A stretch of DNA of 63,532 nucleotides, filler included, from Basidiobolus ranarum (Eukaryota), in NCBI GenBank assembly GCA_040143965.1. It is 26 parts of 26 records of this genome, joined end to end, with 100 filler letters (N's around TTAATTAATTAA, not from the genome) between each part and the next. Parts side by side here need not be neighbours in the genome. Positions count along the whole stretch, not along the records: positions 46,553 to 48,894 come from JASJQH010010326.1; 25 more parts are not named here. One strand, given 5' to 3'. The notes below the pieces were generated by a model. It was not told the origin of the DNA. It worked only from the letters and a program-made list of their open reading frames with translations, and did not search any database. The stretch's first letter is position 1. The number at the start of each line of letters is the position of its first letter. Position numbers and translations under genes: made by a program. This document shows positions 4,364-51,335 of this stretch, one piece after another.

Positions 4364-4813
4364 CTGTTTAAGTATTTGGGAGCCTGTTGGAAGTGGTTTG
4401 GAGAATTAGAGGAATTGGTGGCTTTCACTTATTGATTTATTTAGTAGAAAGTTGACATTTATAGTTTTGTCAAGATGTAAACAAACTAACATGTAGAATA
4501 TGTTAAGGAAAGTCCCAGGAACATGTGTGCAAAGTTTGGGGCTACTACCACAAGTTTGAAAAATCTATATATCTGAGAACCTCTAAGTTGGTAAAAGTAT
4601 TCTAAGTAAATTCCAATTGAGAATAATTGATAATATCTTAGTGAATTATAAGATAGCTAAGTACTAAGCTATATATGACTATATAGGTGCTTAGGCAATG
4701 CTAGTTTCAACACTCTCCCTCAACTAAATAGTCATATAAACTAATCCTAATAAAGGTCTAAATTTCTCAAATTTCTGTCTAGCTAATGGTTTGGTTAATA
4801 TATCAGCAATCAT
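4364..4813 (-). mobile_element. Copia family A 3' LTR with PPT and end of RNase H
   Basis: LTR matches 1604-1950; purine tract GTTGAGGGAGAG; MIADILTKPL on the minus strand. Confidence 0.85.
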
Positions 4814-46552: not shown

Positions 46553-46853
46553 GCTTCGACAGATGGAGGCCAATATCAGTGCACGTGAAGCTGCCACCAT
46601 TAAGCGTGAAGCTGAACTCAAAGAACGTGAGCAGCATATTGAGCAAAGAGAAATGGAGCTCAAAGCCATCCGTGCCAAGCTTCTGAGCACTCCTAAAAAA
46701 GAATATGACTTTATGGAAATTTCGAATTTAAGTGTTCCCGGGCGTAATAATCATGCTCCTACCATAAACGAAAATCAACGACTAACGAATATGATGGATG
46801 AGGATGATGATATTCCTTCTCCATTCCTCAAACGTCGCCCTACTATCGCTTAA
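46553..46853 (+). CDS. C-terminus of a coiled-coil protein (possibly a NIMA/Nek2-type kinase tail)
   Basis: Open frame from the contig edge, E/R-rich coiled coil, terminal DDIPSPFLKRR; family assignment tentative. Confidence 0.55.
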
Positions 46854-47357
46854 TTTAAATCATTAATATTAGATTTTGAAATTTTACGATGTTGTATCTT
46901 CAGAGTTTCTACACATCTCCATCTGCGCAAATCTTCTTGCCTCAACAAATATTTGTAAGTGAACATTCCTCACCACTTTCTCTTTTCACAGCGCAATCTT
47001 TTGACGTTATCTTTTTGTGAACAGGGATGCACATTTGTTGCAATCAATTTTTTCTTGTTTTGTATGATATTACCGTCCCCTTTCGAAGTAAATTCGATTT
47101 TTTATTATTAACTCGGAAAATAAATAGGTTATCTAAAGAATTATCCGTCTAGATTGATAGTCACCAAGTTGGGGTGAAAGTATATTTTATTTCAGGTACA
47201 CAAATAGAGGCCGTCACCCTTCAAAGCAGAAGAGTTGGAGTAAATTACTAACAATGAAGGGCTACACGACCTCTCAACCAAATAGTTCGGTGTACGGATA
47301 TGTCATGGATGAAATGTGATTGATATCGTGAAAAATAGTATGTCCATTATTGATGAA

Positions 47358-47981
47358 TTATTGCTTCAAAGAAGCAGCTTCTTCGACAAATTGATCAATG
47401 AACTTTTGGTCACGCATTCCCACGAACTTGCTGACCACCTCCCCTTTGAATATAGTGGCGACGGTAGGAAGTGAGGCAATCTGAATTAAGAAATGTTATG
47501 TGGCTGTTATATGGAATGTAATAGGAGTGAAGTGTACTTCATATTTAGCTGCGACGGTGTTTGCTTCATCCACGTCGAGTTTGACTAAATTAACTTTGCC
47601 ATTCTTTTCAACAGACTTTTTGAGAATAGGCGCCAACATACGACAAGGCCCACACCAACTATTCAGGGTTAATTGAACTTAATACTAGTCTCTTACTTAC
47701 CATATTAATCAGATTTACCTTGCGTAAAAATCAACAACTACGGGTATTTCACTGTTTTCGACCAATTCTTGGAAAGTCTCTTGGGTGGCTTCAAGAATCT
47801 TTCCATCGCGTACCAGAGAAGAGCTATGGAAACCAGCAATGGAGATACCACGAGGAACGGAAACGCCTAGATTTCGTTGAGGTTATGTCATATAAGTTAT
47901 CCGGGTCTGAAATACAATATATGGCTAATGCAAAAACCGCTTACGTGTTAATGAGCGAGTGGCGACACTAAGGAAAGACAT
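47358..47981 (-). CDS. Mitochondrial thioredoxin (4 exons)
   Basis: Spliced MSFLSVATRSLTR|VSVPRGISIAGFHSSSLVR..PVVVDFYAS|WCGPCRMLAPIL..KLDVDE..KYE|IASLPTV..KFVG; Arg/Ser-rich presequence; not in the ORF track. Confidence 0.93.
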
Positions 47982-48098
47982 TTTGTTAATAGGTACTTAT
48001 TCGAACTAACTAAAGATATATCCCCAAAGACAAATCCTTTTTAAAAGAATAAAATTATTATTAAATACCCCAAATATCAAATGGGATTTATAAACATA

Positions 48099-48894
48099 CA
48101 GCGTTTTAATCTAAAATGAGACGAATTAAAAAATCAATTAGACATTTCAAAATGGACGAAAACACATGATTGTTCAAAGACTTACTCTGTATCAAAAGTT
48201 TAGTGTTGCGATAACTACACAGGATTGTTGGCTTTTTTCGATGGTCAACTGCTGCTAGCTGACGAGATACCTCTTCTTTTATAGCCGGTGGAGAGCGGTT
48301 CCTTCAATCTATAGAAACGTTCTGGTCTTTCACCATTTTCACGCAAGTTGAAAAGAATATGTCTAAAGTTCAAAGTAGCAGCCATGTCACGATTCCAAAG
48401 ACGATGGAGAGAAACTTCAGTAGTTGCCTCAGTAGTATTGGTCACGACCTTTAAACACTGTTAGTCTTTGTACCTGAGCAGAAATTAAGTTTTAATTTTC
48501 AATATTTTACTTATAAAAAGCGTTTACTTTAAAAGGCCGTGACGATATACAATATGATACTTTTCTCATTTGTATAGTTTAGGATTTTGTACTTTTTTAA
48601 ACTTTTCCAGTTCACCGTTCTGGCAAGTAGAGCACAGACTTGAAGTTTTAAACTCGCCAAGGAGGAATAGCCGGAAGCTTTCTTTGGCTAGCATTTTTCT
48701 CGTTCCGACGCCTCTATTGGGCTCAGGATACTTTGCATTTCCAGCCGACCAGTTACCAAGTATTAATATAGTACCATTCCCGAACTTCTCTCGAAGATTC
48801 TTGGCAAGCCGTTTGTCTGATTGTAGTTGATTATTGAAACTTGAGAGCTTCATTTTTCTAAAAGGTAACAAACCGCTGGTACGCTGGTCTTCTC
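48099..48894 (-). mobile_element. Right part of a Fanzor-carrying, probably Tc1/mariner-type transposon
   Basis: Candidate terminus TA|CAGCGTTTTAATCTAAAATGAGACGAA at 48097-48125, subterminal direct repeat AAAATG(A)GACGAA, Fanzor 3' end immediately inside. Confidence 0.6.
48245..48894 (-). pseudogene. Fanzor1 (eukaryotic TnpB-like RuvC nuclease), C-terminal half with a 54-bp intron and two premature stops
   Basis: LPFRKMKL..LILGNWS..EP.RG.G.RKML..GEFKTSSLCSTC..HGLLK|..QC..RLWNRDMAATLNFRHIL..GERPERF; intron 48474-48527; stops at 48566-48568 and 48461-48463. Confidence 0.9.
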
Positions 48895-49834
48895 NNNNNN
48901 NNNNNNNNNNNNNNNNNNNNNNNNNNNNNNNNNNNNNNTTAATTAATTAANNNNNNNNNNNNNNNNNNNNNNNNNNNNNNNNNNNNNNNNNNNNCATCTG
49001 TGGGAGTAAAATGAGCTATCTTTGGGGCAATTTGGATGAGTTTGAAATTTCCAATATGTAATTGCTAATTCTCACATAATTCACATATATATATAATATA
49101 TGTTCTGTTTTTCAGCTAAGTGATATTTGACTAATTAATGTTGACTAACTAATATGTGATATATGAAATAGTTAGGTGTATAAAGATAGGGATAACATAT
49201 ATGATAAAGACAATAAACTTCAACATCTTAGAACTGTTGAAGCAGGTATATCAGCAGAGCAGATCTAACTAATATATGTCTTGGGAGTAGCAGTAGGTTA
49301 CTATGTTACAGTAGAGAGTAGGTTTGCTAGGCAGCTAGGCTTGGTGTTCTGTAGGTGCTAGGGGATTCTAGGCTTGGATCGAAATGAGAGGGAAATATTG
49401 AATTTGTTGAGAAACACTGAGAAGTGTTGAGATCCTATATTTGTTGAGACACCCACTAAACCAAAAGGTTCAGTTAGCTTTACCTATACTTTTTGATAGC
49501 AAAGTGAATTAATCATCACCAAGATATTAGATGACTAATTCTGATATAAGAAAATGTGATTGGATAGATAGATAAGTGAGTCATGCATCAGCTGAAGTGT
49601 TGGCAGTGAAAGATCATCGGTTATGAATCTAGCGACTGATATTGACTTGTGTCTAGGCAGATGACTCAGGGTTTAATATGGATTGGATAATGATCATGTG
49701 ATTGGTCATATGATCTGATAGGAGGGATAAGCAAATAGATAATTAGTCAGGTCATAGGTCACATGATAAAGTCACTGGATGAGTTCAAGTGACTAGTTAG
49801 TGATATTGATAAACTAAACAGATATTCAAACAAG

Positions 49835-51335
49835 TTGTATAGATGTGGCATAAGTTTAAACAGCTTTGTATATTGGTGCACAACACCAGCACCCACAAAT
49901 GGCTGTTTGTGTTGCCAACCATATAGGCAACCTTCACATAGGTCCAGATCTGGCGGAGTTACAAAGTTTAGTCCAAAAAATCTTGTTTTTGAATAAATTC
50001 CTCATTTATTGAGTTCCTAGATGACCCAATCTCCTATGCCAGATTTTCCAATCTATCTCTCCAGATGTGGCACTAGTGACTTGTTCATACATTGGCATAA
50101 TATCATGAAGCTTATACAAGTTATTTTACTTAACTCCAGAAGCTATGTAATTCTCTTTTTGAACCCTGCTTGTACAACCATTTGGATCAAAATTGAAGCT
50201 GTATCCCTCAGATGTAGCTTTAGACAGTAATAACAGCTTTTTTGCTATCCTAAGCACATATAGCACATTTTCAGTATCAAATACATGTCCCCAGAGATGC
50301 CCCCAAGATCCACTTAAACTTCTCCTACTCACAGAGCTTCTAGTGGCTGGTCATCTCCCTTATAAACCTTCTTATTTATGTTGGTTTTGAGGATCTTGAA
50401 CCTGTTTTTCTGATTAGATAAATGTTGAGAGGCTTCAGAATCAATATATCACAGCCTGCATTCTGGTTCAGAGGTCACTGATAGGGCAGAGATGAATAAA
50501 ACTTCCTCTTTGGTTATAACCTGATGTGCTTGTTCTGACTTCTCATTTTTGTTGTAATTTCTTGATTTGCAATCTTTCAACTGGGGTCCTGGTTTGTTAC
50601 AAACATGGCATAAACCTGGTTTCCTTCTTCTGTGACCTTTGTATCTGCAAAAGCTCCACATCCTCAGATTCTTTTTCCAAATTCTTACTTTTGAGGTGTT
50701 GGTCCATTAGTCTTCCCACCACAAACTCCAAAGATAACTTGTCACATCTTGCTTCCAATGCTGTGACCAAGTTTGAATACTGTTCTGGTAGACTACTTAG
50801 AAGAGTCATAATGACATCTTCTTACCATAAAGTTGCATCAATATTTTCCAGTTGTTTTGCCAAAGATTTCAAACTTGCAATATCAGTAACCATTCTTTCA
50901 GACTATTCTATCTTTGTATTGATGAACTTTTGTCTGAGAGAGAGTCTATAAGCAAGACTCTCTGCTTCATAACACTCTTGCAATATAGTCCAAGCTTGAT
51001 GGGAAGTCTTGGCATATAGAATATTCACAAGTTGTGAATCCTTCAAACTTTGACAAATGATATTAAAGGCCCTCTGGTCTCTTTTCTTATAAGCTTCCAA
51101 TAAAGAAGGGTCAGAAGGTTCCTTCACATCTCCAAAGTCTACATTCCAAAGTTCCCTGTCTTCCAGCATGATTTGCATTGTAAACTTCCCGCAATTGTAA
51201 TTTTCTCCATCAAGCTTTTCAACACTTGAGTTACCAAAAGTGGTTGTAGTGGTTTCTGTCATGATGTAAAGGTTAGAACACAGGGCTCATAACCTATTGG
51301 GAAAATATGGGCTGTTTGGAGGAACTATAGAAAAG
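49835..51335 (-). mobile_element. Copia family B: LTR end, PBS (51283-51294), gag-protease pseudogene
   Basis: EKLDGENY..MLEDRELW, LLSSLPEQYSNLVTALE, CHVCNKPGPQLKDC, YIDSEASQH. Confidence 0.9.

Follow-up and report, generated by a model that had tools for sequence, protein, structure and literature searches.

The window, by which we mean the whole 63,532-nt stretch of DNA that was analysed, has a G+C content of 36% and contains 50 runs of 44 N. These occur as 25 pairs around the same insert (N44-TTAATTAATTAA-N44) and divide the window into 26 pieces of about 2.4 kb each, with sizes that fall slowly along its length. Neighbouring pieces are unrelated, and any feature spanning a spacer would therefore be an artefact. 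The locus described here is on a 2,342-nt contig, the piece at positions 46553-48894, and all of the features given for this contig are on the minus strand. One is a host thioredoxin gene with introns (47358-47981), which matched Pfam PF00085 (E = 1.1e-12 at 47496-47678) and encodes a WCGPC motif. The other is a fragment, at 48245-48894, that codes for the last 200 or so residues of a Fanzor1 nuclease and is carried near the end of a transposable element. The putative ATG of the thioredoxin gene, at 47979-47981, is 117 nt past the end of that element and on the same strand; the element thus sits in the thioredoxin promoter region. An initial annotation of this DNA had placed the RuvC-I region of the nuclease beyond the contig edge, and the edge was correctly located, as the next spacer begins at 48895 and the sequence past 48894 is not of the same contig. 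A second Fanzor copy was not found in the other 25 pieces of the window by self-BLAST or by tblastn with the relatives, and Rfam gave four sub-threshold chance matches only on the contig.

The minus-strand frame from 48895 to 48245 was translated by reading through the stops, with X at each of them, and this translation was used as the query. Against solved protein chains, it matched 9cf0_P, the Fanzor1 of Parasitella parasitica (PpFz1), with E = 1.5e-37 in two stretches flanking an intron, and 8gkh_P, the Fanzor1 of Spizellomyces punctatus (SpuFz1), with E = 2.6e-14. A third match was noise (E = 0.82), and none other was listed. Of 802 longer candidate proteins, 47 matched at E <= 0.001, almost all of them from Mucorales and Kickxellales, and the best full-coverage match was a hypothetical protein of Rhizopus delemar (66% identical, with 99% of the query aligned). 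Proteins of similar length gave 51 matches from 174 candidates, again chiefly from Mucorales, with the top identity being 75% over half the query for a protein of Rhizopus stolonifer. The matches to PpFz1 and SpuFz1 bear out the Fanzor1 identity that the initial annotation had assigned. The comparison with profiles that it had proposed would have failed: the Pfam and NCBIfam models (TnpB models included) gave no match on the fragment. Pfam also reported no family for four full-length relatives, the local library apparently being without PF26935.1, a family that is listed by the protein database for most of the longer relatives. NCBIfam found nothing on the Parasitella protein and one meaningless sub-threshold match on the Fanzor ORF of L001, a related locus described below. 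The fragment is therefore without a profile match because a suitable model is lacking, not because homology is.

The query was aligned with 12 of the 47 longer proteins. The upstream exon fragment, which is cut by the contig edge (48528-48894), holds GNWS, the alternative RuvC-II Glu and the first CxxC of the zinc ribbon, and residues 9-124 of the read-through translation align to residues 1093-1207 of the PpFz1 chain. The RuvC-II catalytic Glu, in its alternative position six residues ahead of the first CxxC, is intact at 48653-48655; in the alignment it falls opposite chain residue 935 of 8gkh_P, equivalent to E541 of SpuFz1. Likewise, the RuvC-III catalytic Asp of the WNRD motif is intact at 48386-48388 and pairs with chain residue 1000, which is SpuFz1 D606. 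A single offset of 394 between chain and SpuFz1 numbering fits the Glu and the Asp alike. The catalytic triad of SpuFz1 is D383, E541 and D606 (PMC11423790), and both residues that the initial annotation had read as intact are equated by the alignment with members of it. An alternative RuvC-II Glu combined with a RuvC-I DPG motif has been described as a fingerprint of Fanzor proteins (PMC10711439). The DPG motif was found in L001 and in the aligned relatives; RuvC-I of the fragment itself falls past the contig edge.

A metagenome scan yielded 15 loci, of which L001 (4,815 nt) and L002 (1,211 nt) span the whole fragment and approximately 500 nt downstream of it. In the window, the frame from 48895 to 48245 is broken only by TGA at 48566-48568, TAA at 48461-48463, TGA at 48245-48247, and two stops within a spliceosomal intron. 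This GT..AG intron (48474-48527, with GT at 48527-48526 and AG at 48475-48474) is 54 nt long, which is why one frame is kept across the entire region, and it appears in the translation as an 18-residue insert relative to 12 relatives. The residues around it are HGLL(K)YKDxQC here and HGLLRCKNQQC in Rhizopus. At the corresponding site, L001 and L002 each carry GTAAGT...CAG, with an intron of 59 nt (4038-4096 in L001), and the L001 intron must be spliced because its two exons open in different frames. Annotated Rhizopus proteins continue without a gap over the junction. The intron is therefore real, and the frames, the first two stops and the splice sites are all where they had been placed initially. 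The last exon (48215-48473) holds the WNRD RuvC-III motif and ends with the ancestral stop, TAG at 48215-48217. The open reading frame had been thought to end at 48245; however, the TGA at 48245-48247 is itself premature, as the relatives extend 10 codons further and the window frame past this TGA still parallels their C-termini down to the TAG.

L001 harbours a complete element, which shows in full the kind of carrier that had been postulated, one with terminal inverted repeats (TIRs) flanked by TA. Its inverted arms, at 1721-1855 and 4446-4580, are 135 nt long and 89% complementary, and there is a TA at either end (1721-1722 and 4579-4580). The only long ORFs within the element are those of Fanzor, and the gene is open except where a T-run near 2425 seems to shift the frame by 1 nt, possibly through an error of assembly. 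The run, within 2415-2435, has 7 T, and 6 would leave the N-terminal Fanzor exon in frame; P0003 and other annotated Rhizopus proteins have their starting Met downstream of the corresponding position. The left flank of L001 (1-906) codes for a protein resembling tyrosine recombinases, with a Phage_integrase match that falls below the cut-off (E = 6.4e-4); a Crypton- or DIRS-like neighbour may be its source.

We compared four ends from three loci, namely the right ends of the window copy, L001 and L002, and the left end of L001 after reverse complementation. The last 30 nt or so are common to all four, and nothing is alike beyond the position equivalent to 48099/48098. The junctions are CGCTG/TA in the window, CACTA/TA at the right end of L001, TACTG/TT at the right end of L002, and CACTA/TA at the left end of L001, such that TA follows three of the four ends, with L002 (TT) as the exception. 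The TA at 48097-48098 is the corresponding target-site duplication in the window. The terminus had been predicted at 48099 next to this TA, and that is exactly where the four ends lose similarity. The predicted TA was the right one of 23 such dinucleotides that occur over 218 nt, from 48000 to the ancestral stop; a reading of the sequence alone had placed the transposon end to the base. A search for the tip motif gave one match in the whole window, the site at 48099 itself, with none in the other 25 pieces, and 0 matches in viral contigs.

Between the ancestral stop and the tip is a non-coding right end (48099-48214) made up of a shortened TIR and a candidate omegaRNA scaffold, with the best conserved part at 48099-48143. 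The distance from stop to tip is 116 nt in the window versus 217 nt in L001, and about 100 nt of the internal repeat units of the L001 region are missing from the window. In L001, a unit of the GTCT(A/C)A type recurs about five times in direct orientation within the 135-nt repeat at 4446-4580, and two or three of these units are retained in the window; they are reminiscent of the multiple transposase sites found in Tc1-type elements with long TIRs. Identity between the window and L001 is 89% in the terminal block (40 of 45 positions) and 38 of 49 in the post-stop block of approximately 48 nt, whereas the exons are 82% and 77% identical, which is lower than the terminal block. The predicted fold of the window right end was no better than that of shuffled sequences (z = +0.40; 131 of 200 shuffles equalled it), and that of L001 was marginal (z = -1.83; 10 of 200 shuffles). 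The sole consensus helix at the right end has 6 bp and is invariant.

A candidate closing helix was also noted. An 8-nt block at 48184-48191 is complementary, in 7 of 8 pairs, to the tip plus TA (48097-48104), and in L001 the counterpart block at 4385-4392 is complementary to 4573-4580. Over the window, L001 and L002, 22 of 24 cells in this helix are paired and one pair varies on both sides (U-A in L001, C-G in the window and U-G in L002); with these three sequences the covariation is not significant, as 337 of 500 shuffles were as good. The exact 8-nt complement of L001 was reached in 67 of 2000 shuffles. In the window, the helix has one mismatch and a longest exact match of 5 nt, a length that was reached in 1712 of 2000 shuffles.

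For Fanzor1, it has been predicted that the RNA scaffold includes both TIR and target-site duplication, and that the transcript runs approximately 15 nt past the duplication (PMC10711439). The candidate helix is in agreement with these predictions. By analogy, the omegaRNA scaffold would be contained in 48099-48214 and would extend no further than about 48191. The initial annotation had assigned 48099-48244 to the scaffold, of which 48215-48244 was formerly coding sequence. It had also started the guide at 48098; judged by the same analogy, a start after the TA, at 48096, is more likely, and the 15 to 20 nt of flank within 48077-48096 would then act as the guide (PMC10711439, PMC10432273). We also considered a model in which the helix pairing the tip and the duplicated TA with the block near the stop closes the guide RNA, and in which the dead right end may serve live paralogues. 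This model is tentative, and we consider it to be less probable than not. If it were true, the sequence required by the transposase and the fold required by the nuclease would be tied together. The helix provides a testable model of where the guide RNA starts and ends in this Fanzor1 family.

The proposal that the right end, though attached to a dead nuclease gene, still works as a guide-RNA module and serves intact paralogues in trans appears unlikely. The higher identity of the terminal 45 nt to L001 than of the coding sequence is what it would predict, although binding of a transposase to the TIR predicts the same conservation. The block complementary to the tip retains most of its pairs and has one compensatory change, and 'ghost' loci that are devoid of an ORF have been described in Spizellomyces (PMC10432273). 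Set against these points are the loss of repeat units from the right end, the one broken pair in the helix and a fold that does not surpass shuffled sequence.

In a distant, G+C-rich Fanzor1 family represented by L010 and L011 (L010 1052-1314), the two copies are identical for 727 nt and then diverge. These have a 10-nt perfect complement between the tip and a block approximately 25 nt before the stop codon, which was reached in 0 of 2000 shuffles. L005, a diverged member of the same family, ends in tandem repeats.

The class of the carrier requires separate consideration. A transposase was not seen, and the superfamily assignment therefore rests on the TIRs and TA of one complete relative. 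These fit the Fanzor-only Mariner-type class and not the MuDR class given for the Rhizopus oryzae family ROr-4 (PMC3627910). A carrier of the MuDR/Mutator type, as published for ROr-4, instead of a TA-inserting one of the Tc1/mariner type, is improbable on present evidence. In its favour is the length of the TIRs, about 135 nt, as long TIRs are common in Mutator elements too. However, the 9-nt flanks of the L001 repeats are dissimilar and have only the TA in common, so that there is no 9-bp target-site duplication. Moreover, the tips, read inward, are CAGCG, TAGTG and CAGTA, with the majority sequence being CAGTG, which we take to resemble Tc1 ends. A TA-inserting element of the Tc1/mariner type is the more probable carrier.

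The coding part of the window copy has decayed. All three stops are one transition away from the sense codon of the relatives: TGA 48566-48568 is in an Arg column, TAA 48461-48463 in a Gln column, and TGA 48245-48247, 10 codons short of the ancestral stop, in a Thr/Ser column. The C4 zinc ribbon is incomplete, with 3 of 4 Cys left and the third, in the LLRC column, replaced by Tyr (48470-48472); relative P0006 also has Tyr here. We attribute the loss of this zinc ligand to decay of the copy; it does not speak against Fanzor1 descent. The Asp preceding the catalytic Glu, which is kept in 12 of 12 aligned relatives, is Gly at 48656-48658, and the splice donor is weakened to AA/GTAAAC compared to AG/GTAAGT in L001 and L002. 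The window DNA is 82-83% identical to L001, L002 and L003, which are 90-94% identical to one another, and it has 40 substitutions of its own in 363 aligned nt. A RIP-like mutation bias was considered and rejected, as the 40 private changes include 12 of the C>T/G>A kind and 11 of the T>C/A>G kind. L003 (JXWR01016102.1, 78-1351) matches window residues 2-130 and has 90% DNA identity to the L001 family; its similarity stops after the first 25 nt or so of the intron and the sequence beyond is unrelated, so that this copy was truncated or interrupted there.

It is very hard to believe that the gene is alive, with its stops read through or introduced by faulty assembly or sequencing: each stop is a single transition from sense and the contig is short and possibly of low coverage, but three stops in 200 codons are accompanied by the lost zinc ligand, the Asp-to-Gly change, the weak donor, the shortened right end and the 40 private substitutions, while the contig's thioredoxin gene shows none of these defects in its Pfam-matching exons. 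The copy is dead, as the initial annotation, which had noted two of the three stops, had proposed, and its front is missing at the contig edge. With three premature stops, a zinc ligand lost and part of the repeat region gone, it cannot make the protein.

Taken together, these data indicate, with a probability that we put at about 0.88, that the fragment represents the 3' third of a Fanzor1 gene that has decayed, and that its carrier, of which it occupies the right end, is a non-autonomous cut-and-paste transposon with long TIRs and insertion at TA. A live copy would give a transcript that is spliced, with removal of at least the intron seen here, and translated into a TnpB-like RuvC nuclease. 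Transcription through the right inverted repeat and on into flanking DNA would yield an omegaRNA that is loaded into this nuclease. The last 50-100 nt or so of the element would form the scaffold of this RNA together with the TA, followed by a guide of some 15-20 nt of flank. Cleavage of the empty target site by the nuclease would then favour copying of the element back into it. We infer this homing role, together with the omegaRNA and the guide, from comparison with Fanzor systems that have been characterised, for which such an architecture and RNA have been described (PMC10432273, PMC10711439, PMC11423790).

The initial annotation had suggested that the family may be uncharacterised. The family is already known in Mucorales, and this copy is one more decayed Fanzor1 member. 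Four Fanzor1 families, ROr-1 to ROr-4, were reported from Rhizopus oryzae in 2013 (Bao & Jurka 2013, PMC3627910 Table 1), and Fanzor1 activity, RNA and structures have been published, including those of a Mucorales member shown to cut DNA (PMC11423790). That member, PpFz1 (PDB 9CF0-9CF3; Xu et al. 2024, PMC11423790), is the closest solved relative of the window copy and has the same motifs at the Glu, the zinc ribbon and WNRD. It uses the TAM 5'-ATN and a 75-nt omegaRNA (PMC11423790), and this TAM and small RNA fit a TA-inserting element with a guide after the TA. Unlike the window and its Rhizopus-type relatives, PpFz1 has an insertion of approximately 90 residues right before LLPFRKMK (alignment columns 597-692), presumably the FRI domain named in PMC11423790.

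Hypothetical proteins of R. delemar, R. arrhizus, R. microsporus and R. stolonifer, which are Rhizopus Fanzor1 proteins, are 50-75% identical to the window copy. Among L001 to L003, the copies that cover the intron site and the right-end tip resemble the window in both, and the window is diverged and shortened by comparison. ROr-4, the sole ROr family in the main text of PMC3627910, is MuDR-like, whereas L001 is not. L001 is more like the Fanzor-only Mariner elements of the PUl-4 type described there, which have Fanzor1 alone, TIRs and TA flanks (PMC3627910). Those elements are from oomycetes, however, and have TIRs that match confirmed Mariner elements, whereas L001 is assigned to the class by its TIRs and TA. 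The SpuFz1 locus has 30-nt repeats compared to 135 nt in L001, and its RNA has been proven, whereas that of the window is a candidate by analogy (Saito et al. 2023, PMC10432273). Bacterial TnpB (IS200/IS605, IS607), the ancestor of the family, is likewise a RuvC nuclease guided by a right-end RNA (PMC10711439); unlike the fragment, it has the Glu at the canonical position, is intronless and travels with other transposases. The copy points to paralogues in the source genome, and these should be Rhizopus-type Fanzor1 genes without the FRI domain, in a TA-inserting carrier with long repeats.

On the next piece of the window, ORFs at 49759-51286 on the minus strand have a zinc knuckle and gag/pre-integrase-like motifs, which suggests a fragment of a copia-type retrotransposon.
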